15,993 nucleotides of DNA from a virus. Lineage: Duplodnaviria > Heunggongvirae > Uroviricota > Caudoviricetes. The stretch is from the IMG/VR virus record IMGVR_UViG_637000264_000001; one strand, given 5' to 3'. Positions within the stretch are counted from its first letter, which is position 1; every line of letters starts with the position of its first letter. A program made the position numbers and the translations under genes. The notes below the pieces were generated by a model. The model saw nothing but the letters and a program-made list of their open reading frames with translations. It made no database searches and was not told the DNA's origin. Of the stretch, positions 1 through 15,993 are shown one piece after another.

Positions 1-45
1 GTGATAGTCTTAATACTAGTTTTTAGACTTGTCATTGGAGAACAG

Positions 46-411
46 ATTATTGATGTCTTAGGGCCGGAGAAACGCAGACGGCGTACCACACAGGAAAAGA
101 TCGCAATTGTTCAGCAGAGCTTTGAACCGGGGATGACGGTCTCCCTCGTTGCCCGGCAACATGGTGTAGCAGCCAGCCAGTTATTTCTCTGGCGTAAGCA
201 ATACCAGGAAGGAAGTCTTACTGCTGTGGCCGCCGGAGAACAGGTTGTTCCTGCCTCTGAACTTGCTGCCGCCATGAAGCAGATTAAAGAACTCCAGCGC
301 CTGCTCGGCAAGAAAACGATGGAAAATGAACTCCTCAAAGAAGCCGTTGAATATGGACGGGCAAAAAAGTGGATAGCGCACGCGCCCTTATTGCCCGGGG
401 ATGGGGAGTAA
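46..411 (+). CDS. insC: IS2 transposase OrfA (InsC); expected initiator position reads ATT instead of ATG
   Basis: Translation ...[40 protein letters not shown]... ending PLLPGDGE matches InsC; codon 46..48 is att where InsC (MIDVLGPEK...) needs ATG. The ORF-track start at position 1 is a window-edge artefact. Confidence 0.8.
363..369 (+). promoter_or_regulatory. A6G slippery heptamer (aaaaaag), candidate programmed -1 frameshift site joining insC to insD
   Basis: gcaaaaaagtgg at the insC/insD overlap; IS3-family elements make an OrfAB fusion by -1 slippage on A6G motifs (established knowledge). Confidence 0.7.
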
Positions 412-1274
412 GCTTAGTCAGCCGTTGTCTCCGGGTGTCGCGTGCGCAGTTGCACGTCATTCTCAGACGAACCGATGACTGGATGGATGGCCGCCGCAGT
501 CGTCACACTGATGATACGGATGTGCTTCTCCGTATACACCATGTTATCGGAGAGCTGCCCACGTATGGTTATCGTCGGGTATGGGCGCTGCTTCGCAGAC
601 AGGCAGAACTTGATGGTATGCCTGCGATCAATGCCAAACGTGTTTACCGGATCATGCGCCAGAATGCGCTGTTGCTTGAGCGAAAACCTGCTGTACCGCC
701 ATCGAAACGGGCACATACAGGCAGAGTAGCCGTGAAAGAAAGCAATCAGCGATGGTGCTCTGACGGGTTCGAGTTCTGCTGTGATAACGGAGAGAGACTG
801 CGTGTCACGTTCGCGCTGGACTGCTGTGATCGTGAGGCACTGCACTGGGCGGGGACTACCGGCGGCTTCAACAGTGAAACAGTACAGGACGTCATGCTGG
901 GAGCGGTGGAACGCCGCTTCGGCAACGATCTTCCGTCGTCTCCAGTGGAGTGGCTGACGGATAATGGTTCATGCTACCGGGCTAATGAAACACGCCAGTT
1001 CGCCCGGATGTTGGGACTTGAACCGAAGAACACGGCGGTGCGGAGTCCGGAGAGTAACGGAATAGCAGAGAGCTTCGTGAAAACGATAAAGCGTGACTAC
1101 ATCAGTATCATGCCCAAACCAGACGGGTTAACGGCAGCAAAGAACCTTGCAGAGGCGTTCGAGCATTATAACGAATGGCATCCGCATAGTGCGCTGGGTT
1201 ATCGCTCGCCACGGGAATATCTGCGGCAGCGGGCTTGTAATGGGTTAAGTGATAACAGATGTCTGGAAATATAG
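369..1274 (+). CDS. insD: IS2 transposase OrfB (InsD), DDE integrase-type catalytic domain
   Basis: 301-aa [33 protein letters not shown]...[24 protein letters not shown], overlapping insC in the -1 frame; matches recalled InsD over its whole length. Confidence 0.92.
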
Positions 1275-1333
1275 GGGCAAATCCAGTATAAGCCATTATC
1301 AAACCCACCCGTAGATAGGCTTTGTAATGGCTA

Positions 1334-1623
1334 CTTCTTCAGAAATGATTCGATGAATTCACGTCGAGGATGACGATAGTTCAGAATATCTTCTGGCATC
1401 CTCATAAAGCGGTTGTTGCCGTCTTTGGCAGTAACAAAACAGCTGTGAACTCCGCAGACATCCGTTTTGATCGTGTCGCTATACTCAAAAAGCAACTGAG
1501 CCATCTTCTCTTGCCATTCTGGAGGCATAGCCTCCATGAATACTCGCGGCATCACGCAGAACGACGCATGCGTAAGACCAAACCACAGTTGCAGGTCTTT
1601 ACGATATTCTTCATCCATCGTCT
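1334..1623 (-). pseudogene. Orphan 3' fragment (about 97 codons) of an unidentified gene, trapped between the IS2 right end and the IS911 end
   Basis: Minus-strand frame open from the IS911 boundary to stop at 1331..1333 (...EEYRKDLQLWFGLTHASFCVMPRVFMEAMPPEWQEKMAQLLFEYSDTIKTDVCGVHSCFVTAKDGNNRFMRMPEDILNYRHPRREFIESFLKK). The first 26 codons of track ORF 1331..1702 are IS911 sequence. Family not recognised. Confidence 0.5.
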
Positions 1624-1631
1624 TGAAGTGG

Positions 1632-2801
<1,170 letters not shown>

Positions 2802-2873
2802 TGGAGCACCTGTGTTGTTCTGAGGTGAGCATATCACCTCTGTTCAGGTGGCCAAATTCAGTGTGCCACTTCA

Positions 2874-3914
2874 CCTTTCTTTCCGAACCTTGTTGATCAC
2901 CTTCTGGTTAAGCATCACACGGCTGATGGCGTTGAAGATGGCATTTCAATCTGCTACTTCAAGCCATACTCGCAAGGCCGTGCTCGCTGGCAGGGTGACA
3001 CAATCCACGGCGTGTGGTTTGACGAAGAGCCACCATACAGCATTTATGGCGAAGGTCTTACCCGTACCAACAAATACGGGCAATTCTCAATTCTGACGTT
3101 TACCCCGCTGATGGGGATGTCTGACGTTGTTACCAAGTTCCTGAAGAACCCCAGCAAGTCGCAGAAAGTGGTCAACATGACCATCTATGACGCTGAGCAC
3201 TATACCGACGAGCAGAAAGAGCAAATCATCGCATCATATCCCGAGCATGAGAGAGAGGCGCGTGCTCGCGGTATTCCTACGATGGGTAGTGGTCGAATCT
3301 TCCAGATACCGGAAGAGACGATTAAGTGTCAGCCGTTCGAGTGTCCTGATCACTTCTACGTAATTGGCGGGATGGATTTCGGATGGGATCACCCACAGGC
3401 GCAAGTTCAGCTTTGGTGGGATAAGGAGGCAGACACAATCTACGTTTCACGCGTGTGGAAGGCGAAAGAAAAAACAGCCGTTCAGGCGTGGGGAGCCGTT
3501 AAATCATGGGCGCATAAAGTGCCAACCGCATGGCCTCATGATGGAAACCAGCACGAGAAGGGCGGCGGTGAGCAGCTCAAAGGGCAGTATGCAGACGCTG
3601 GATTTATGATGTTGCAGGAGCATGCGACATGGCCTGATGGCGGTAACGCTGTTGAGCCAGGCATCACTGAATTGCGCGACATGATGCTCGATGGTCGCTT
3701 CAAAGTATTCAATACCTGTGAGCCATTCTTTGAGGAGTTCCGCCTCTATCACCGTGATGAAAACGGGAAAATCGTCAAGCTTAACGACGACGTGCTATCC
3801 GCCGTTCGCTATGCATACATGATGCGCCGCTTCGCAAAAATGATGCGCGACATCAAAAAACCAAAAGAGAAAAAGATACCAGCCCCAATCAGGCCCATCG
3901 CACGGAGAACTTAA
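2874..3914 (+). pseudogene. Terminase large subunit, 5'-truncated by IS911 (about 347 C-terminal codons remain: Walker B onward plus nuclease domain)
   Basis: Frame open from the IS911 boundary: ...GDTIHGVWFDEEPPYSIYGEG... (Walker-B-like hhhDEE), later HFYVIGGMDFGWDHP and KLNDDVLSAVRYAYMMRR typical of terminase nuclease domains; stop 3912..3914 abuts the portal ATG. No Walker A segment in the window. Confidence 0.8.
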
Positions 3915-6080
3915 ATGGCCGACGAAAACAGACTCAATTCCATTCTGTGTAAGTTTGACGCAGACTGGATGGCGAGCGATGAAGCCAGAACCGAGGCGAC
4001 AAATGACCTGTATTTTAGCCGAGTGTCGCAATGGGATGACTGGCTATCAAACTACACTACCCTGCAATATCGCGGACAATTCGATGTTGTTCGCCCGGAG
4101 GTCAGGAAACTGGTCGCAGAGATGCGCCGGAACCCTGTCGACGTTCTCTTCCGACCCAAAGACGGCGCTAATCCTGATGCAGCCGATGTATTGATGGGGA
4201 TGTATCGTACTGATATGCGCCATAACACGGCAAAGATTGCCGTTAACGTTGGCGTTCGTGAGCAGATAGAGTCAGGCGTTGGTGCATGGCGTCTGGTCAC
4301 GCAGTACGAAGACAACGATCCAACAAGCAACAATCAGGTAATCCGACGCCTGCCAATCCATGAAGCCTGCTCACACGTCATATGGGACGCCAACAGCAAG
4401 CAGATGGATAAGAGCGACGCTAAGCACTGCACGGTGATTAACGCCTTGTCGCGCAATGGCTGGAAAGAGTTCGCAGAGGATTACGGTATTGACCCGGATA
4501 CCCTGCCATCTTTCCAGAATCCTAACGATACATGGCTATTCCCGTGGGTGTCGAATGATGTCGTCTACGTCGCTGAGTATTACGAGGTAGAAGAGGAGAA
4601 GGAGAAGGTCTTCATCTACCGCGACCCGCTGACAGGTGAGCCGGTCAGCTATTACCAGCAGGATATCAAAGACGTCATCGACGACCTGGCTAATCGTGGA
4701 TTCATTAAGGTAGCAGAGCGCAAGGTGAAGCGTCGGCGTGTGTATAAGTCGATCATCACCTGTACGCAGATACTGAAAGACCGCGAGAAGATAGCCGGAG
4801 AGCATATTCCAATCGTTCCAGTGTATGGCGAATGGTCATTCGCTGGTGACAAGGAGTGCTACGAGGGTGTGGTAAGGCTGACGAAAGACGGTCAACGCCT
4901 TCGTAACATGATTATGTCGTTCAACGCCGATATTGTTGCTCGGTCACCGAAGAAGAAACCGACCTTCTTCCCTGAGCAAATCGAAGGCTACGAATACATG
5001 TACGGCGGAAATGATGACTATCCGTACTATCTGCAGAACAGGACTGATGAAAACGGTAACGACCTGCCGATTGGTCCAATCTCCTACATGGAAAACCCTG
5101 AAGTGCCGCAAGCCAACGCTTACATGCTTGAGGCTGCCACCAACGCAGTGAAAGAAGTGGCTAGTCTTGGCGTGGATGCGCAGGCGGCAAATGGTCAGGT
5201 CGCTTTTGATACCGTCAATCAACTGAACATGCGGGCAGACCTTGAGACATACGTGTTTCAGGATAACCTGGCTACCGCAATGCGACGTGATGGCGAGATT
5301 TATGCCTCAATGGTCAACGATATTTATGACGTTCCTCGTCATGTAACGCTGACACTTGAAGATGGAAGCGAGAAAGACGTTCAACTCTATGCGCAAGTTG
5401 TCGATTACCAGTCCGGCAATGTGGTCACACTCAACGACATTCGCGGTCGATATGAGTGCTATACAGACGTTGGGCCATCCTTCCAGAGTATGAAGGAACA
5501 GAACCGCGCAGAGATTCAGGAGTTGCTCACCAAGGTTCCGCAAGGTACTCCAGAGTTCCAGATGCTGATGCTGCAATACTTCACGCTGCTTGACGGTAAA
5601 GGCGTCGAGATGATGCGAGAGTACGCGAACAAGCAACTGGTGATGATGGGGCTGAAGAAACCAGAAACACCTGAAGAGATGGAGATGGTGCAGCAGGCAC
5701 AACAACAGCCGCAGCAGCCATCAGCAGAGCAAATTCAGGCGCAGGGTATCCTTCTGCAAGGTCAGGCTGAATTGCTCAAGGCAGAGAACCAACAGGCGCA
5801 GATTCAGGTTGAAGCTGCCAAGGTTGAAGCCCAAAACCAACTCAACGCCGCGAAGATTGCAGAAATATTCAACAATATGGACCTCGACAAGCAGGCAGAA
5901 CTGCGTGAGTACCTCAGGCTCGTAGGTCAATTCCAGCAACAGCGCAGCAAAGATGCTCGTGCTAACGCTGAGCTGCTTCTTAAAGATGCAGACCAGACTC
6001 ATTCACAACGCATGGATTTCGCGAATCTTATGCGTCAAGTTCAAATCCCCTCCGGCGGAGTAGCCGAGACACCTCAATAA
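3915..6080 (+). CDS. Portal protein (P22 gp1-like, 721 aa)
   Basis: Full-length ORF; near-collinear similarity to P22 portal as I recall it ([11 protein letters not shown]...[15 protein letters not shown]...[15 protein letters not shown]...[23 protein letters not shown]...), with the Gln-rich helical C-terminus. Confidence 0.95.
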
Positions 6081-6093
6081 GAGAGAGTTAATC

Positions 6094-7005
6094 ATGGACC
6101 AAACCACCGACATTCAGGCTTCTGAAGAATTAACCCTGCCCGGCAATCATGCAGCGGCATCTGCTGATGGCTTAGTTGTCGATAATGCCAACGACAGCGC
6201 AGGTCAGGAAGAAGGCTTTGAGATTGTCCGGAAAGACGATGAGAAACCAAAACAAGACCCGGCAACTAATGCTGAATTTGCCCGTCGCCGCATCGAACGC
6301 AAACGCCAGCGTGAGCTTGAGCAGCAGATGGAAGCGGTTAAGCGTGGAGAGTTGCCGGAGCACCTGCGGGTGAACCCTGAGTTACCAAAACAACCAGACC
6401 CTAACGATTATCTTTCCGAAGATGCACTGGCTAAGTACGACTATGACCAGAGCCGCGCACTGGCTGCCTTCCAGCAGGCAAACAGTGAATGGCAGATCAA
6501 GGCTATGGACGCACGAAGCCAGGCTGTCGCCGAGCAGGGTCGCAAAACTCAGGAGTTCACCCAGCAATCAGCGCAATACGTCGAGGCGGCCCGTAAGCAC
6601 TACGAGGCAGCGGAAAAGCTCAATATCCCTGACTATCAGGAGAAAGAGGATGCATTCATGCAACTGGTGCCGCCAGCAGTCGGTGCCGACATCATGCGCC
6701 TCTTCCCGGAGAAATCCGCCGCTCTCATGTATCACCTTGGTGCTAATCCTGAGAAAACACGCCAGTTGCTGGCGATGGACGGGCAATCCGCGCTGATTGA
6801 ACTCACTCGACTGTCAGAACGTTTAACTCTCAAGCCTCGAGCCAAGCCTGTTTCAGAAGCCCCGTTACCTGATGAACCCATTCAGGGACATGCTGTTGCT
6901 GCAAATATCTCTGCGATTGAAAAGCAGATGGAGGCGGCAGCAAACAAAGGGGATGTAGAGACGTACCGCAAGCTCAAGGCGCAACTGAATAAAGGAATTC
7001 GATAA
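6094..7005 (+). CDS. Scaffolding protein (P22 gp8-like, 303 aa)
   Basis: Position between portal and coat; same length as P22 scaffold; sequence ...[49 protein letters not shown]...[18 protein letters not shown]; RBS gagag upstream. Confidence 0.9.
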
Positions 7006-8300
7006 TGGCATTAAATGAAGGTCAACTGGTCACGTATGCTCTGGATGAAATCATCGGAACCGTCCAGAACCTGACGCCAATGGCGTCAAAAGTGACAAAA
7101 TACCCCCCTCCGGCAGAATCCATGCAGCGTTCAAGCAACACCGTGTGGATGCCTGTTGAGCAGGAAGCGCCAACCCAGACTGGCTGGGATTTAACTGGCA
7201 ACGCAACCGGGATTCTGGAACTCTCCGTGAAGTGCAACATGGGCGATCCGGATAACGATTTCTTCGAGCTTCGTGCAGATGACCTGCGTGATGAGCGTTC
7301 TTACCGTCGCCGCATCCAGGCATCCGCCAAAAAACTGGCGAATAACATTGAGTCAGCGATTGCCAAACAGGCAACTGAAATGGGCTCGCTTGTTGTTCAC
7401 GATACCCGCGCAATTGGTCCATCGACTGGCCTGCCTGGCTGGGATTTTGTGTCTGATGCAGAGCGACTGATGTTCTCCCGTGAGCTAAACCGCGACATGG
7501 GCATCAGTTACTTCCTGAACCCTGACGATTACCGCAAAGCAGGCCGCAACCTGGTAGATGGTGACATCTTCGGGCGCGTTCCTGAAGAAGCATATCGAAA
7601 CGGTACTATTCAGCGTCAGATTGCTGGCTTTGATGAAATTCTTCGCTCACCGAAACTTCCGGCAGTTACCAAGTCAACCGCGACTGGTGTAACTGTTTCT
7701 GGTGCGCAGAAGTTTAAGCCGCAGGCATACACCCTTGATACCGATGGTAACAAAGAGAACGTCGACAACCGTGTTGCAACGGTGACCGTATCCTCCACCA
7801 CCGGATTTAAGCGCGGCGACAAAATCAGCTTCATTGGTGTGAAGTTCCTGTCTCAGATGGCGAAGAATGTGCTGACTGATGACGCGACTTTCTCAATCAC
7901 CCGTGTGATCGATGGTACTCACATCGAAATCACGCCGAAGCCGATTGCGCTGGATGACGCGTCACTGACAAAAGAAGAGAAGGCTTACGCTAACGTAAAC
8001 ACCTCTCTTGCTGATACCACTCCGGTAAACGTTCTGAACGTGGCAACAACCACCGCTAACGTGTTCTGGGCTGATGACTCAATCCGCCTGCTGTCTCAGC
8101 CGATCCCGGTAACCCATGAACTGTTTGCTGGCATGAAAACGTCTTCCTTCAGCATTCCAGGTATTGGTGTTAACGGCATCTTCGCAACGCAGGGTGATAT
8201 CAACACTCTGTCTGGTAAGTGCCGTATTGCTGTGTGGTATTCAGCATGTGCTGTACGACCAGAGGCAATTGGTGTTGGTCTGCCTAACCAGACCGCGTGA
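7005..8300 (+). CDS. Major capsid (coat) protein (P22 gp5-like, 431 aa)
   Basis: [10 protein letters not shown]...[23 protein letters not shown]...[29 protein letters not shown]... closely matches P22 coat; start overlaps scaffold stop (taatg). Confidence 0.95.
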
Positions 8301-8306
8301 TAACCA

Positions 8307-8331
8307 GAGGGAGCTTCGGCTCCCGTTTTTA
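8307..8331 (+). terminator. Rho-independent terminator-like hairpin directly after the coat gene
   Basis: gggagc-ttcg-gctccc (6-bp GC-rich stem 8309..8314 / 8319..8324, TTCG tetraloop) followed by gttttta. Confidence 0.7.
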
Positions 8332-8344
8332 TCTGGAGACAAGC

Positions 8345-8575
8345 ATGACACACATGATCTTTCGTCATGGCGACATGAAGAAGTGGAAAGGCGTTGGCTA
8401 CGACTTTGAAATCGTGAAAGCCGAAGAGCTTCAGGAATATCTGGATGCTGGCTGGTTTTCACATCCTGATGACCTTTTGAAGGATGTTGCAGAGCCAGAG
8501 CCAGAAGAAAAACAGCGTAAAAAGCCTGGTCGAAAACCTAAGGCGGCAGCAGATGAACCTGACAACGAAGGGTGA
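8345..8575 (+). CDS. Small hypothetical protein (76 aa) between coat and gp4-like genes
   Basis: ATG at 8345 with ggaga 7 nt upstream; [76 protein letters not shown]; 3' end overlaps the next gene start by 23 nt. No family recognised. Confidence 0.6.
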
Positions 8576-9053
8576 TTTAGTTCTTGCGGCATTACGTAAG
8601 CTCGGTGTTGCATCAAATGCCACGTTAACCGATGTCGAACCGCAGTCTATGGAAGACGGCGTCAACGACCTTGAAATGATGATGGCTGAATGGCTTGGCG
8701 GTGATGCGTCACCTGGTATCAACGTTGGCTACATTTTTGCTGATGCAGATGTTGCTCCGGATCCGGGCGATGAGCACGGTTTATCAAATAACGCTATCAA
8801 TGCCGTCATTTTCAACCTTGCCTGCCGAATTGCTCCAGATTATGCGCTGGAAGCGTCTGCAAAACTTATAACCACTGCCAGATACGGGAAAGAGCGACTC
8901 GTCAAACTGTCTGCAATGGACAGGGCAAAAGCAGCTAAATGTAAGTCCGGTTATCCAAACCGTATGCCTGTTGGTAGTGGTAACCAGTTGGCGAAGTGGA
9001 ATGGTTGGAATTACTTCCACCGAAAGGAACCTTGCGATAACGGGAGCGAATAA
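8553..9053 (+). CDS. Head-completion / tail-accessory protein (P22 gp4-like, 166 aa)
   Basis: [47 protein letters not shown]...[14 protein letters not shown]... resembles P22 gp4 and has the same length; the track ORF from 8484 is an upstream in-frame extension. Confidence 0.85.
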
Positions 9054-10471
9054 TGCCTATTCAGCAACTTCCGCTTATGAAAGGTGTCGGCAAAGACTTC
9101 CGAAACGCCGACTATATCGACTATCTGCCAGTGAATATGCTGGCTACACCCAAAGAAATCCTGAACAGCAGCGGATATCTTCGCTCATTCCCGGGCATTG
9201 CCAAACGTTCTGACGTGAACGGTGTATCTCGCGGCGTCGAGTACAACATGGCGCAGAATGCTGTTTATCGCGTGTGTGGCGGCAAGCTGTACAAAGGAGA
9301 AAGTGAAGTCGGTGATGTTGCCGGAAGTGGTCGTGTATCAATGGCGCATGGTCGGACATCACAGGCGGTAGGCGTTAATGGTCAACTGGTCGAGTATCGC
9401 TATGATGGCACGGTCAAAACCGTCTCAAACTGGCCTACAGACAGTGGATTCACTCAGTATGAGTTAGGTTCAGTTCGCGACATTACGCGCTTACGTGGGC
9501 GTTATGCGTGGTCAAAAGACGGAACTGATTCATGGTTTATCACTGACCTTGAAGACGAATCTCATCCTGACCGTTACAGCGCACAATATCGTGCCGAGTC
9601 TCAGCCTGACGGCATCATCGGTATCGGGACATGGCGAGACTTCATCGTCTGCTTTGGTTCATCGACTATTGAATATTTCTCCCTGACTGGCGCAACCACC
9701 GTTGGTGCCGCTTTGTATGTTGCACAACCATCGCTGATGGTGCAGAAAGGCATTGCCGGAACTTACTGCAAAACGCCATTCGCTGATTCGTATGCGTTTA
9801 TCAGCAATCCGGCAACGGGTGCGCCGTCTGTGTATATCATCGACTCCGGTCAGGTGTCACCAATTGCCAGCGCGAGCATTGAGAAAATCCTCCGCTCCTA
9901 CACTGCTGATGAACTGGCTGATGGTGTGATGGAATCGCTGCGATTTGATGCTCATGAGTTGCTGATTATCCACCTTCCGCGTCACGTCCTCGTGTACGAC
10001 GCATCTTCAATCGCCAATGGCCCACAATGGTGTGTGCTGAAAACAGGTCTGTATGACGATGTGTACCGCGCTATCGACTTCGTTTACGAAGGCAATCAGA
10101 TAACGTGCGGCGATAAGCTGGAATCTGTTACCGGGAAACTGCAATTCGATATCAGCAGCCAGTACGACAAGCAACAGGAACACCTGCTGTTTACTCCACT
10201 CTTCAAAGCGGATAACGCCAGAGTGTTCGACCTTGAGGTTGAATCGTCAACTGGCGTTGCGCAGTACGCCGACCGCCTTTTTCTCTCTGCAACCACTGAC
10301 TGCATCAATTACGGGCGTGAGCAGATGATTGAGCAGAATGAACCGTTCGTTTACGACAAGCGTGTTTTGTGGAAGCGAGTAGGGCGCATCAGGAAAAATG
10401 TCGGCTTCAAATTGCGCGTTATCACGAAGTCACCTGTCACTCTGTCTGGCGCTCAGATAAGGATTGAGTAA
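9053..10471 (+). CDS. Tail-accessory protein (P22 gp10-like, 472 aa)
   Basis: [49 protein letters not shown]... strong collinear match to P22 gp10, same length; taatg overlap with upstream gene. Confidence 0.9.
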
Positions 10472-11319
10472 TGGCTGATTCGAATCTCAATGTGCCGGTA
10501 ATCATCCAAGCTACGCGGCTCGATACATCAGTCCTTCCACGCAATATCTTCTCGCAGTCGTATCTGCTTTACGTTATCGCACAGGGCACTGATGTTGGTA
10601 ACGTGGCTAACAAAGCCAACGAGGCCGGACAGGGCGCTTATGATGCACAGGTCAGGAACGATGAGCAGGATGTGATTCTCGCTGACCATGAGCAGCGAAT
10701 TTCTGCTGCGGAAGCAACGCTTGTTAATCATGAGGAGCGAATCAGACAGGCAGAATCAACTCTTCAGGACCATGAAACACGAATAGCTCAGAATGAAAGC
10801 GATATTTCGTCGCTTGACACAAGAGTTCAGTCGCTGGAGTCGCAGGTTTCAGACCATGAAACGCGCATCGATGCTCTGGAGTATGCAACCACACGCAAGA
10901 AGTCAGAGGTTGTTTACTCTGGTGTATCTGTAACCATCCCGACAGCGCCGACCAACCTTGTTAGCCTGCTGAAAACGCTCACACCGTCATCCGGCTCGTT
11001 GGCACCATTCTTCGACACCGTTAACAACAAGATGGTTGTGTTCAACGAGAACAAAACCCTGCTCTTCAAGTTGTCGATTGTCGGCACGTGGCCCAGCGGA
11101 ACCGCCAACAGGTCAATGCAGCTAACCTTTTCCGGCTCTGTTCCTGACACACTGGTCAGCAGTCGTAATGCGGCGACAACAACCGACAACATCCTGTTAG
11201 CTACGTTCTTCAGCGTGGATAAAGACGGCTTTCTTGCCACAAATGGCAGTACGTTAACCATTCAGTCGAATGGTGCGGCGTTTACTGCCACAACCATCAA
11301 GATAATCGCGGAGCAGTGA
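10471..11319 (+). CDS. Tail needle protein (P22 gp26 family) with C-terminal knob domain (Sf6/HK620 type, 282 aa)
   Basis: N-terminus [43 protein letters not shown] matches gp26; central heptad-repeat coiled coil; C-terminal ~140 aa non-helical Ser/Thr-rich extension. Confidence 0.85.
10684..10880 (+). repeat. Tandem ~42-nt (14-codon) periodic repeats encoding DHExRI-type coiled-coil units within the tail needle gene
   Basis: gaccatgagcagcgaat (10684), aatcatgaggagcgaat (10726), gaccatgaaacacgaat (10768), gaccatgaaacgcgcat (10851); protein [67 protein letters not shown]. Confidence 0.7.
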
Positions 11320-11774
11320 TGATTACATTCAAACCAACGCGAAACATCGACCTGATAGAAGCAGTCGGAAATCACCCTGACATTATCGCCGGGAGCAACA
11401 ACGGTGATGGATACGACTACAAACCTGAATGCCGTTACTTTGAGGTGAACGTGCACGGTCAGTTTGGCGGCATTGTTTACTATCAGGAGATTCAGCCGCT
11501 GACATTAGATTGCCACGCCATGTACCTGCCAGAGATTCGCGGCTTCAGCAAGGAAATTGGGCTGGCGTTCTGGCGATACATTCTGACTAACACCACCGTT
11601 CAGTGCGTAACATCGTTCGCTGCACGCAAATTCCGACACGGTCAGATGTACTGCGCAATGATTGGCCTTAAGCGTGTAGGAACCATCAAGAAATACTTCA
11701 AAGGCGTGGATGACGTGACTTTTTACAGCGCCACACGCGAAGAACTAATCGACTTCCTGAATCACGGGAGATAG
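11319..11774 (+). CDS. P22 gp14-like virion assembly protein (151 aa)
   Basis: [23 protein letters not shown]...YDYKPECRYFEVNVHGQFGGIVYY...; ATG at 11319 overlaps the tail needle stop (gtgatga); the track start at 11316 is GTG one codon upstream. Confidence 0.8.
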   Translation: MITFKPTRNIDLIEAVGNHPDIIAGSNNGDGYDYKPECRYFEVNVHGQFGGIVYYQEIQPLTLDCHAMYLPEIRGFSKEIGLAFWRYILTNTTVQCVTSFAARKFRHGQMYCAMIGLKRVGTIKKYFKGVDDVTFYSATREELIDFLNHGR

Positions 11775-11776
11775 CC

Positions 11777-12469
11777 ATGTTATATGCATTTAAGCTGGGC
11801 AGAAAACTGCGCGGCGAGGAACCTTATTGCCCTGAAAAAGGCGGGAAAGGTGGCAGTTCTGATAAAAGCGCAAAGTATGCAGCAGAAGCCCAGAAGTATG
11901 CTGCAGACCTGCAAAATCAGCAGTGGCAGACGATCATGAAAAACCTTGCTCCGTTCACGCCTCTTGCGGAGCAGTATGTTAACCAGCTTCAGAACCTTTC
12001 CAGTTTAGAAGGTCAGGGGCAGGCACTTAATCAGTATTACAACTCTAAGCAGTATAAAGACCTTGCAGGGCAGGCGCGTTACCAGAGTCTTGCTGCTGCG
12101 GAGGCGACGGGTGGACTTGGTTCGACAGCCACAAGCAATCAACTGGCTACGATCGCGCCGACACTCGGTCAGTCTTGGTTATCAAATCAGATGAGCAATT
12201 ACAACAATCTGGCAAACGTTGGGCTTGGTGCGCTGCAAGGTCAGGCAAACGCCGGGCAGACGTACGCCAACAACATGAGCAGCATTGCACAGCAAAGCGC
12301 AGCTCTTGCCGCTGCTAATGCCAATAAACCATCAAGTCTTCAGACTGCAATTAGCGGTGGCACGTCTGGTGCGATTGCCGGTGCAGGTCTTGCCAGCCTT
12401 TTGGGAACATCAACGCCTTGGGGCGCTGGTATTGGTGCTGGTATCGGATTGCTTGGCTCGTTGTTTTAA
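11777..12469 (+). CDS. Ejection (injection) protein, P22 gp7-like (230 aa)
   Basis: Position after gp14-like; Gln/Asn/Ala-rich with Gly/Ala-rich hydrophobic C-terminus (GAIAGAGLASLLGTSTPWGAGIGAGIGLLGSLF). Confidence 0.75.
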   Translation: MLYAFKLGRKLRGEEPYCPEKGGKGGSSDKSAKYAAEAQKYAADLQNQQWQTIMKNLAPFTPLAEQYVNQLQNLSSLEGQGQALNQYYNSKQYKDLAGQARYQSLAAAEATGGLGSTATSNQLATIAPTLGQSWLSNQMSNYNNLANVGLGALQGQANAGQTYANNMSSIAQQSAALAAANANKPSSLQTAISGGTSGAIAGAGLASLLGTSTPWGAGIGAGIGLLGSLF

Positions 12470-12478
12470 GGGGGAATC

Positions 12479-13810
12479 ATGGCTACTTGGCAAGGAACAA
12501 ACGGCGGATTGTTGGCTGGTATCGGCGGCGTCAACTCAAACGCTCCGAGCGTAAATGACATCGGCAATACGCTTCAGCTTATCAGGCAGAACAATGATAT
12601 TGAGCGTTCAGGCGCTAACAATGTTGGGCTGACTGCTTTGCAAGGTCTTTCAGGTATTGCGGGTGTTTTTCAGCAGGAAAAGCAGGCTCAGCGGCAGAAA
12701 GAATTTCAGCAGGCGTACGCTAATGCTTATGCGTCTGGTGATCGCGGTGCTTTGCGTCAGTTGGCTACTCAATATCCAGACCAGATTGAATCCGTTCGTA
12801 AAGGCATGGGATTCATTGATGAAGAGCAGCGTAATTCTATCGGCACCTTAGCGGCTGGCGCACGCCTTGCGTCATCGTCTCCAGAAGCAATGCAATCATG
12901 GCTGCAAAACAACGCCGGTGAGTTAGCTCGTGTTGGCGTTAATCCTCATGACGTCGCTCAGATGTACCAACAGAACCCGCGGCAGTTCGGCGAATTTGTC
13001 GATCACCTGGGGATGAACAGTCTCGGGCCCGAAAAATACTTTGACCTACAGGATAAAATGCAGGGTCGCCAGGTTACCATGCGCGGTCAGGATCTGGATT
13101 CGCAAACCGCCGCTCGGAATCAGGCAATCACAATGCGCGGACAAGATATCCAGGCGAATTTAGGTCAGCAGCGCATTAATCTGGACGCAGAAACAAACCG
13201 CATTAACAACGAAAATAAGCGCCTTGACCGGATGCTATCAGCAGAAACTAACGACCTGAAGCGCCAGGAAATACAGAGCCGCATAGCAGCCAACAACCAG
13301 CAGTTGCAGCAGAAGCAGCAAGCGCTAAATGATGGCTACAAAGACGGCATCAACACCCTCACAACCAGCATGTTCACTCTGAACGATATCGTTAGTTCTC
13401 CTTCACTTAAGAGCATTACAGGCTTACGTGGAGTAATCCCCAACGTTCCAGGCTCACAGGCTGCAGACACTCAGGCACGACTTGATACCTTTAAATCACA
13501 AGCATACCTGACAGCGGTTCAGGCCATGCGAGGCATGGGCGCACTTTCTGATGCCGAGGGCAAAAAGCTCGACCAGGCTGTTGGTTCGCTGCAGAACTCG
13601 CAGAGCGAGGAGTCCTTTCGTCGCAACGCTGGCGTCATCCTGAACACGCTCAACCAGAAGCGTAATGAGGCGGTTGGTAAGTACGTTCAGCAAAACGGTA
13701 TCAAGCGAGTGGAAGCGCCTCAGGCTTCTATAGATTACCTGAAGCAGCACCCCGAGCTGTCAATCGACTTCATTAATCGCTACGGATATCTTCCATCTTT
13801 GGGGCAGTAA
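12479..13810 (+). CDS. Ejection protein, P22 gp20-like (443 aa)
   Basis: Synteny; Gln-rich predicted coiled-coil protein with internal repeat VTMRGQDLD / ITMRGQDIQ; RBS aaggggg upstream. Confidence 0.75.
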   Translation: MATWQGTNGGLLAGIGGVNSNAPSVNDIGNTLQLIRQNNDIERSGANNVGLTALQGLSGIAGVFQQEKQAQRQKEFQQAYANAYASGDRGALRQLATQYPDQIESVRKGMGFIDEEQRNSIGTLAAGARLASSSPEAMQSWLQNNAGELARVGVNPHDVAQMYQQNPRQFGEFVDHLGMNSLGPEKYFDLQDKMQGRQVTMRGQDLDSQTAARNQAITMRGQDIQANLGQQRINLDAETNRINNENKRLDRMLSAETNDLKRQEIQSRIAANNQQLQQKQQALNDGYKDGINTLTTSMFTLNDIVSSPSLKSITGLRGVIPNVPGSQAADTQARLDTFKSQAYLTAVQAMRGMGALSDAEGKKLDQAVGSLQNSQSEESFRRNAGVILNTLNQKRNEAVGKYVQQNGIKRVEAPQASIDYLKQHPELSIDFINRYGYLPSLGQ

Positions 13811-15541
13811 ATGGCTAATTACCGTGATTTGTTAGAGCAGGCTGGCGCACGTTACGGTGTGCCAGAAGGGTTGATGACTGCACTGGGTGCCAAGGAGTCT
13901 TCTTACAACCCTGCCGCAGTAAGCTCCGCCGGGGCTGTAGGATTGACTCAGGTCATGCCTGGGACATGGCGTGATATGGGTTATACCGATGAGCAAATGC
14001 AAAACCCCGAATATCAGGCTGACGCTGGCGCGCGCTATCTGGCAAAGATGTACCAGCAGTTTGGTAACTGGCGTGACTCTCTTCAGGCTTATCACGACGG
14101 TCCCGGCAACGTTATGAAGGCAAAGCGTGGTGAATATACGCCAGGACCTGAAGGCCGCGGTTACGTTGATGATCGCTTTGCTCAATGGGCTGGTGACCCG
14201 GTGACAGACTCAACAGTCGAACAGCGCGCCACCTCTGCAAAGGTACATCCTCAGCAAGACCCTAACAACCCGTTTGCACAACTGGAAGTACAGTCATCCG
14301 AACAAGTATCGGCATCAGGTGTGCAGTCAGACCCAAATAATCCATTTGCTCAGATTGAGCAGCAGGCAGCCAGTCAGCAGCCACCTCAACCCGTAAGTTC
14401 TGTCGCACCGAAACCTGTTCAGCAACAAACAGTTAATCAGGCCAATAATGCACCAACACGGGAAGAACCATCATTGATGCAACAAGCTGGCGATTGGCTC
14501 ACTGGTGGTCAAAGTGCAGGGCAAATTGCAGAACAGGCTGGTCGTGGTCTGGTAAACATACCATTTGACGTATTGCAGGGTGGCGCAAGTCTGATTAATG
14601 CAATCAGTCAGGGGCTTGGGGGGCCAAAAGTATTGGATGATGTTTATCGTCCAGTAGACAGACCGACAGACCCCTACGCGCAAGCTGGAGAGTCAATAGG
14701 CGGTTATCTTGTTCCTGGAGCAGGTGTAGCTGGAAACATGGTCATTGGTTCTCTCGCTGACGCGGCGAATCAACGGGGTGATTTTGCCGAAAATGCCGCT
14801 ATTAATGCCGGACTTAGCATTGCTACGCATGGCCTGATAAATGGCGTTACCCGTGGTGTTCGTGGTGCATCAAATATAATTAGTGGCAATAAAACATCTG
14901 CACAGAGAGCGACCACTGCGCCAACAGAAACATCACCATTCTCCGGTGATGCCGCTGCAGCAACAAATCCTGCGGTTCATGCCGCAGAGGCAAGAGTAGC
15001 ACAAGGTGTACCAATGACGCCTGCGACGAAGAACCCAGAGGAAGTCGTTCGCACAGTAGCAGCACAAAAAAGGCCAAATCTCGCTTCATCGCTTGATGAA
15101 CTAGATATCAATCCTCAGGCTGAAGTTCTGGAGTCTGCTGAAAGGCTTAATGTTGATTCATTACTCCCTTCACACTTTTCCGGGAACGAGCAATACAAGG
15201 CAGTTGAGCAAGCAATCAAGTCCCGTGCGGGTTCTGCTCTACAGGTGCAGGAAAATGAAGCAATCAGGCAGCTAGCACAGGGCGCGGGTGAGATAATTGA
15301 TCGCGTTTCCGGTGCAAAAGATGCTCTTGGTATGAGCGACAAGTTTATTGATACGGTCAATGGAAGAATGTCTGCGCTGATGAAACGAAGCGACCAGCTT
15401 TATCGCAATGTTGAAAAGGCGATGCCTGCAGGTGCAAAAATTGATGCGCCATCAACAAGGTCAATGCTCAAACAGGTGGCAGAAGATCTTGGCGGGATGA
15501 AAAACCTTGACCCTATTGAAAAGAGAGTTGAGGTAGCCTGA
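13811..15541 (+). CDS. Ejection protein (P22 gp16 position) with N-terminal lytic transglycosylase (SLT) domain; the last three codons and stop come from the adjacent IS600 end
   Basis: N-terminus has the SLT signature [28 protein letters not shown] ... AYHDGPGNV; the frame enters the IS600 terminus at 15529 and stops at 15539..15541 (...KRVEVA*), so the native 3' end is probably missing. Confidence 0.8.
14258..14359 (+). repeat. Direct repeat encoding DPNNPFAQ(L/I)E twice, 72 nt apart, in the linker after the SLT domain
   Basis: gaccctaacaacccgtttgcacaactggaa (14258) and gacccaaataatccatttgctcagattgag (14330). Confidence 0.75.
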
Positions 15542-15612: not shown

Positions 15613-15993
15613 TGAACCGCCCCGGGAATCCTGGAGACTAAACTTCCTGAGAAAGAGGTAAACAGGATGACTAAAAATACTCGTTTTTCCCCCGAAGTCC
15701 GTCAACGGGCAGTCCGTATGGTTCTGGAAAGTCAGGGCGAATATGACTCACAATGGGCGACAATTTGTTCCATTGCCCCAAAGATTGGCTGTACGCCGGA
15801 GACTCTGCGTGTCTGGGGTCGCCAGCATGAGCGGGATACCGGGGGCGGTGATGGAGGGCTCACCACCGCTGAACGTCAGCGTCTGAAAGAGCTGGAGCGT
15901 GAAAATCGTGAACTGCGCCGCAGTAACGATATCCTTCGCCAGGCTTCCGCTTATTTTGCGAAGGCGGAGTTCGACCGCCTCTGGAAAAAATGA
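15613..15993 (+). mobile_element. IS629 / IS1203-type element (IS3 family), left end and orfA; continues beyond the window
   Basis: Left terminus tgaaccgccccgggaatcctggagactaaacttcctgagaaagaggtaaacagg followed by orfA; matches the recalled IS629/IS1203 left end. Confidence 0.85.
15667..15993 (+). CDS. IS629/IS1203 OrfA (108 aa)
   Basis: [108 protein letters not shown]; ends in ggaaaaaatga, the expected orfA/orfB overlap. Confidence 0.88.

Follow-up and report, generated by a model that had tools for sequence, protein, structure and literature searches.

An inherited ATT allele of the IS2 initiator codon at multiple sites in Shigella

What becomes of an IS2 element in which the one initiator codon shared by its repressor and its transposase reads ATT rather than ATG, and is such a change an error, a defect private to one copy or an allele that is handed on? 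The question arises at the left edge of a 15,993-nucleotide stretch of DNA (IMG/VR record IMGVR_UViG_637000264_000001; hereafter the window, meaning this whole stretch). There, a first-pass annotation made from the letters alone had reported a G-to-T change in the insC start codon and had proposed that, unless ATT initiates, this diverged copy makes little InsC or InsCD and depends on other IS2 copies in trans.

We compared the window with the complete 1331-bp IS2 of E. coli K-12 MG1655 (locus L001). Window positions 1–1285 (plus strand) correspond to IS2 47–1331, such that window position p equals IS2 position p+46, and the two align without gaps at 1278 of 1285 bases (99.45%). The window edge cuts off the element's first 46 bp and with them most of the 42-bp left inverted repeat (IRL). 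The full 1331-bp IS2 is present at a locus identical to that of the window (L003); the element is whole in its source genome, and the missing 46 bp are an effect of the window edge only. Seven bases differ from K-12: an A>T in the 5′ leader at window 30 (IS2 76, plus strand), the G>T that turns ATG into ATT at window 48 (IS2 94, plus strand), synonymous changes at window 228 (C>G), 560 (A>C) and 728 (G>A), and a TC>GG at window 853–854 that produces V270G in OrfAB. The alignment thus bore out both left-end differences claimed from the letters, including the exact position of the initiator change.

At window 37–57 the sequence is GGAGAACAGATTATTGATGTC, and its counterpart in K-12 MG1655 is GGAGAACAGATGATTGATGTC, with ATG at IS2 92–94; the reference initiator is therefore ATG, as the first-pass annotation had stated, and not ATT. 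The codon at window 46–48 (plus strand) is the initiator common to OrfA (InsC) and OrfAB (InsCD), and it follows, at a distance of 5 nt, a GGAG Shine-Dalgarno sequence (window 37–40, plus strand) that is the same as in K-12. The orfA (insC) frame runs from the ATT to window 411 (46–411, plus strand), and its product would be that of K-12 insC if translation began at the ATT; PF01527 (HTH_Tnp_1) is recorded for the 136-aa form of OrfA. Reading the window sequence, we found no in-frame ATG, GTG or TTG between the ATT and codon 30, which is the first in-frame ATG (window 133–135, plus strand), in agreement with the claim that some 30 codons lack one (29 by our count).

The remaining parts of the element are intact. 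The A6G slippery site AAAAAAG of the programmed –1 frameshift lies at window 363–369 (plus strand; IS2 position 409), where orfB (insD; window 369–1274, plus strand), encoding the DDE catalytic domain, overlaps the end of orfA at 411 in the –1 frame. V270G is the only residue in which OrfB differs from K-12, so D240, D306 and E342 are unaltered, and PF13276, PF00665 and PF13683 are recorded for a protein identical to the OrfB of the window. V270G itself is close to L266 and H267 of OrfAB, which lie three to four residues away and whose substitution impaired the IS2 transposase (PMC3219604); it is also found in some ATG copies from Shigella, while other copies have only the synonymous 900G. The terminal inverted repeats of IS2 are imperfect; the 41-bp right one (IRR, the donor end; window 1245–1285, plus strand; IS2 1291–1331) is identical to K-12. 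The IRL falls outside the window and is present, with three substitutions, at the 100%-identical locus L003.

The target flanks at the window locus, GTGTA at the left end and GTATA at the right, match at four of five positions or can alternatively be read as GTA plus TA; in an attempt to reconstruct the empty site, these flanks were missing from the closest phage, APC_JM3.2. The left-end junction is irregular both here (L003 1091–1099) and at another locus (L002 3651–3657), where an extra TA separates an ATCCC target duplication from the IRL. These irregularities may reflect the known imprecise joining of IS2 at the IRL.

Beyond IS2, the window holds a P22-like prophage in decay, into which IS911 and IS3 have inserted. 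Its Lederbergvirus-type structural block (3012–15541) encodes portal, scaffold, coat, tail needle and ejection proteins and matches the Escherichia phages APC_JM3.2 and IME10 at about 97% identity. Beside IS911, the open reading frame (ORF) for the large terminase is truncated to 903 nt, compared with 1500 nt in APC_JM3.2. IS911 itself occupies 1625–2875 (minus strand; its end, TGAAGTGGTCAACAAAAACTGGCC, begins at window 1625) and breaks a phage ORF at 1331–1702 (minus strand). Its orfB is broken up into overlapping ORFs at 2122–2472 and 1632–2207, implying an extra frameshift, and this copy is probably a pseudogene. The last ejection-protein ORF (13811–15541; 576 aa) is far shorter than its 2736-nt homologue in APC_JM3.2, and an IS3-type OrfA starts at 15667 and runs off the window end (15993); the ejection-protein gene has probably been cut by this further insertion. 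A prophage interrupted in this way fits the IS-driven genome decay typical of Shigella.

How widely the ATT codon occurs was assessed with a 55-mer built such that only ATT-bearing copies can seed a megablast match. None of the 19,524 IS2 places in 5,426 complete E. coli genomes had ATT; as a positive control, an equally designed search recovered a rare GTG initiator in three E. coli genomes. The same 55-mer located ATT on about 31 S. flexneri virulence plasmids in a plasmid collection. An exact-pattern scan of one genome per species yielded three ATT copies in S. flexneri SFBU1023 and two in strain ECMA0423, and IMG/VR contributed four ATT stretches versus 102 with ATG. Searching for the exact 136-aa annotated protein added two sites in CP000034.1, which we take to be S. 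dysenteriae Sd197, and four in CP026810.1; an ATT 25-mer had no match in a metagenome scan. The window is 100% identical to SFBU1023 over 6855 bases and to ECMA0423 over 5414, and its own IS2 locus is present in four assemblies.

After de-duplication by flanking sequence, these hits amount to 14 distinct ATT loci—a minimum count—all from Shigella: S. flexneri chromosomes, pINV plasmids and S. dysenteriae Sd197. Six of the 14 have perfect 5-bp target duplications; the allele has thus been passed on by transposition, gene conversion or both. What had been taken for a defect peculiar to one copy is an inherited allele, neither private nor an error. ATG and ATT copies occur together in one genome and even on one contig, and ATT copies are the minority among Shigella IS2 copies. 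For scale, IS2 copies number 29 on the S. flexneri 301 chromosome and 25 for Sd197 (PMC7373316, S1 Table). Sequences with the allele have been available ever since the S. flexneri 301 genome was released, and our literature search found no description of it. Hawkey et al. (2020, PMC7373316) did describe an IS2 subpopulation that Shigella genomes share and that is distinct from the one on E. coli chromosomes, an allele cluster whose start codon goes unmentioned there. The window copy resembles this Shigella/pINV subpopulation in its markers, and the ATT copies form a minority sub-lineage inside the cluster.

The haplotypes allow the changes to be ordered. T76 is found at nine of twelve unique ATT loci and at none of 47 unique ATG loci, and the combination of T76 with ATG was absent from the E. 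coli genomes and the plasmid collection searched. Because ATT occurs with A76 in pCP301, L023 and L030, ATT is older than A76T. The window copy carries the Shigella markers 274G, 606C and 900G, to which L003 adds 32G, 42T and 43T. The same backbone is also found with ATG (in L010 and at several IMG/VR loci), which derives the ATT form from such copies by a single step. The suggestion that the window copy is diverged therefore stands in that it belongs to the Shigella-type subpopulation; A76T, on which that suggestion had drawn, may be no independent sign of divergence, being confined to ATT copies and lying, like the start codon, within the predicted leader hairpin.

Further variants—697C, 774A, 899G, 368A, 559T and 1089T—each occur on ATG and on ATT backgrounds, and copies at the same locus vary between strains at IS2 63, 76, 368, 559, 774, 899 and 1089. 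These mosaic haplotypes, together with the strain differences within loci, show that IS2 copies in Shigella undergo gene conversion. At the same time, identical full-length ATT haplotypes stand at no fewer than three sites, each with a target duplication of its own, and close derivatives occur elsewhere; transposition of ATT copies is the simplest explanation for these.

Several individual copies showed peculiarities of their own. Two loci in CP000034.1 (L030 and L031) share an IS1-like end at IS2 1191 at different chromosomal sites and differ from each other at IS2 76, 774, 847 and 899; either an IS2::IS1 composite has moved or the two have undergone conversion. In one assembly of the window locus (L011, GCA_000213455.2), orfA has a 1-bp deletion in a T run (IS2 230), along with E93K and the lack of 774A; the deletion may be true decay, or else an artefact at a homopolymer in an older draft assembly. 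Shigella-type copies, ATG and ATT alike, read TATTTAA where K-12 has TAAATAA (IS2 40–46; L003 1139–1145), the docking site of the OrfA repressor (PMC3299598). Judging from these letters, the operator of the Shigella-type subpopulation may also be altered; the S. dysenteriae ATT copies L030 and L031 retain TAAATAA.

We also asked whether selection is relaxed on ATT copies. A small initial sample gave nonsynonymous-to-synonymous counts of 1:6 on ATG branches versus 11:3 on ATT branches (Fisher p = 0.016), and the idea was withdrawn once about 80 more IMG/VR ATG loci had been added: in the enlarged sample, 697C, 774A, 368A, 559T and 1089T, which had once seemed ATT-specific, were found on ATG copies as well. 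Singleton changes, counted as damaging versus synonymous, did not differ between ATT (7:2) and ATG copies (16:11; Fisher p = 0.44), so ATT copies bear no sequence signature of lost function.

We then considered how the codon would be read. The native IS2 promoter, PIRL, was reportedly mapped by Lewis and colleagues in 2004. Its extended –10 element, TGaTAGTCT, lies at window 2–10 (plus strand) and is the same as in K-12, the TGAT of the extended –10 being at IS2 48–51 (PMC3299598); transcription would start a few bases downstream of it. A consensus promoter scan of the IS2 left end found nothing, which is expected because PIRL is an extended –10 promoter without a –35 box, and by eye neither leader substitution creates a convincing new –35/–10 pair. 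The TTG that A76T makes was considered as a new start and rejected, as it lies in another frame and lacks a Shine-Dalgarno sequence.

RNA folding of the K-12 leader predicts a hairpin of 12 bp whose loop holds the Shine-Dalgarno sequence. The AUG lies in its stem, where G94 pairs with C79 and A76 with U97, so that both leader substitutions fall into one stem. Over the corresponding region of the window copy (25–58, plus strand), the hairpin is predicted to be weakened, from a minimum free energy of –8.7 kcal/mol in K-12 to –3.9 kcal/mol, through G94U, and the predicted chance of an unpaired start codon goes up from 0.06 to about 0.8. In the same model, A76U on top of U94 brings no added opening (–3.9 kcal/mol for both). 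The K-12 hairpin is not significant relative to shuffled sequences (z = –1.47, matched by 17 of 200 shuffles), and covariation testing was impossible as relatives down to 94.5% identity are near-invariant at IS2 63–106. If the folding model holds, opening of the hairpin may partly offset the weaker AUU codon.

AUU initiation in E. coli proceeds at 1–2% of AUG (0.02–3% by reporter), and infC and pcnB are natural AUU-started genes (bioRxiv 10.1101/063800). According to Polard et al. (1991), as cited in PMC4066793, OrfB of IS911, another IS3-family element, also starts at AUU. Deleting the first 12 residues of OrfA abolished DNA binding, the three-helix binding domain spanning residues 13–58 (PMC3219604). 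A product started at Met30 would consequently be without the first DNA-binding helix, and between the ATT and that codon there is no other in-frame start. Output of both proteins from this copy should therefore fall steeply, though not necessarily to zero. The first-pass proposal of lower InsC and InsCD output with reliance on other IS2 copies is thus the most likely outcome on present analysis.

We accordingly favour, at odds slightly better than even (roughly 0.55), the reading that the ATT form is a severe start-codon hypomorph, effectively non-autonomous, with its cis-acting parts intact, which spreads by transposition and conversion. A heritable G>T would turn the sole initiator of the repressor OrfA and the transposase OrfAB from AUG to AUU; ribosomes would still load at the same site and start at some 1–3% of the AUG rate. 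With PIRL, the Shine-Dalgarno sequence, the slippery site, the DDE domain and the right end intact in the window, and the left end intact at the identical locus, an ATT copy should stay a good substrate for transposase supplied by the more numerous co-resident ATG copies. The allele would have reached its at least 14 Shigella sites through transposition of ATT copies and gene conversion between copies. That such a copy supplies itself with too little transposase is deduced from AUU efficiencies in reporter systems.

Some observations sit uneasily with the hypomorph reading. Spread to 14 sites could mean that AUU yields enough transposase for autonomy, and by the singleton counts ATT copies carry no excess of damaging changes over ATG copies. 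The leader hairpin, moreover, is a prediction that does not stand out from shuffled sequences. IS3-family transposases, as in IS911, prefer to act in cis, which would make repeated mobilisation of ATT copies in trans less easy than assumed.

The leading alternative—one we regard as possible but distinctly less probable—holds that ATT copies are attenuated yet autonomous: AUU suffices, and is perhaps selected, to provide a low supply of their own OrfA and OrfAB, possibly in an IF3-sensitive manner. G94U would weaken the codon and open the hairpin, and the later, ATT-only A76U would open it further. Consistent with this, the two leader substitutions affect the two arms of one predicted stem, T76 is found only alongside T94, and the three ATT sequences with A76 place ATT first; in addition, the allele occupies 14 sites, six of them with target duplications, the reading frames of the window copy are intact, and infC and pcnB are established AUU-started genes. 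Yet A76U adds no opening in the folding model once U94 is there, the K-12 hairpin does no better than 17 of 200 shuffles, and the leader is too conserved for covariation to speak. ATT copies, besides, are still a minority, and linkage of positions 76 and 94, which lie 18 bp apart, is expected from descent alone.

Somewhat less plausible again is that ATT copies are null and immobile, and that the allele has spread solely by conversion, the 5′ segment of one ATT copy being copied into resident IS2 copies. The mosaic distribution of the six variants over both backgrounds would fit, as would the same-locus differences between strains and the existence of wrecked ATT copies, namely those with W146* (L029, L032), IS1 insertions (L030, L031) or truncations (L009, L023, L026). 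However, the identical full-length ATT haplotypes at three or more sites are more simply explained by transposition, and conversion from the commoner ATG copies should erase ATT rather than spread it. Moreover, in reporters an AUU that follows a good Shine-Dalgarno sequence always retains some activity (bioRxiv 10.1101/063800).

A more elaborate version of autonomy, which we consider improbable, casts AUU as a tuned start: a self-sufficient IS with very low output of repressor and transposase, governed by IF3-dependent fidelity and upregulated under translational stress. On this view G94U would reduce initiation and at once free the start codon from its hairpin, with the ATT-only A76U as a later refinement. 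If true, this would tie IS2 activity in Shigella to host physiology.

The first-pass annotation had not considered an in-frame GTG at window 1–3 (plus strand), the annotated OrfA start in PGAP and in the original pCP301 and Sf301 annotations; the coding sequence also begins at this GTG in L007 and L008. Were translation to start there, OrfA would have 136 aa and OrfAB would be longer, and the ATT would be a harmless internal isoleucine codon. The frame from GTG to ATT is indeed open, with a TAA stop before the GTG, and the codon would be present on transcripts from the minicircle-junction promoter or on those reading through from outside. Nonetheless, the GTG shares bases with the TG of the PIRL extended –10 element and thus, by promoter geometry, should lie upstream of the native transcript start. 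In L003 it is directly preceded by the TAA, and the upstream sequence, CACTTATTTAA and then GTG, offers no purine-rich Shine-Dalgarno sequence. The 15-residue N-terminal extension that it would add is translated leader and strongly hydrophobic, and in experimental constructs the IS2 start is ATG (PMC3219604). Annotation from the upstream GTG is found on 816 contigs for ATG copies versus 57 for the ATT form; as ATG copies are annotated in the same way, this reflects a longest-ORF convention, not a reaction to ATT and not evidence of usage. S. flexneri transcription-start and proteogenomic papers yielded nothing on the start of IS2 OrfA. All told, we deem the upstream GTG an unlikely functional start, and internal-isoleucine status for the ATT quite improbable. 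Finally, a sequencing or assembly error at window 48 is refuted by the presence of T48 in many independent assemblies, obtained with different technologies from 2002 to 2025, of both chromosomes and plasmids.

Returning to the hypomorph reading, the ATT form can be placed among known systems. The window copy resembles K-12 IS2 (IS3 family, IS2 group) in its promoter, Shine-Dalgarno sequence, A6G site, helix-turn-helix OrfA, DDE OrfB and right end. It differs in the ATT initiator, the A76T leader and V270G in OrfAB and, outside the window, in a left end with 32G and 42T/43T that alters the TAAATAA docking site of OrfA. Where the IS2 reference has ATG 5 nt after GGAG, the window has ATT, a trait that is no criterion for IS naming. 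As in infC, pcnB and IS911 orfB, the AUU follows a Shine-Dalgarno sequence (GGAG-N5-ATT) with no better in-frame start nearby. In those three genes, AUU keeps expression low, and in infC it confers IF3 sensitivity; there, however, the codon is conserved and initiation has been proven experimentally, whereas the AUU of IS2 is a derived minority allele and a putative start. It also strikes the main OrfA/OrfAB start and not a secondary product.

With non-autonomous IS derivatives that full-length relatives mobilise in trans, ATT copies have in common that their ends are intact, that their own transposase supply is presumably weakened and that autonomous relatives share the genome; they depart from them in that their reading frames are complete, the initiator alone is weakened, and mobilisation in trans is putative. 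An independent weakening of the same codon is seen in the GTG-initiator IS2 (A92G) of the mouse/rodent E. coli strains M1 (L021 196–198), M3 and CEC15, whose backbone is similar to that of the ATT copies (32G, 42T, 43T). GTG, though, is a canonical and moderately efficient start, and this form exists as single copies in three genomes and not as a multi-site lineage. PGAP annotates these GTG-initiator copies from the upstream GTG as well.

As a variant, the ATT allele is a modest novelty: the element and the principle of near-cognate starts are well known, and the gain is incremental. For annotation, placing the OrfA start at a GTG inside the promoter hides the allele and yields a spurious hydrophobic N-terminus, and the ATT/T76 pair offers a simple marker for tracing the sub-lineage in Shigella genomes. 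IS2 is among five insertion sequences that drove the decay of Shigella genomes as they expanded, and a sub-lineage with a crippled initiator at many sites would serve as a natural test of the extent to which IS3-family elements can be mobilised in trans, and of how far gene conversion reshuffles their copies.
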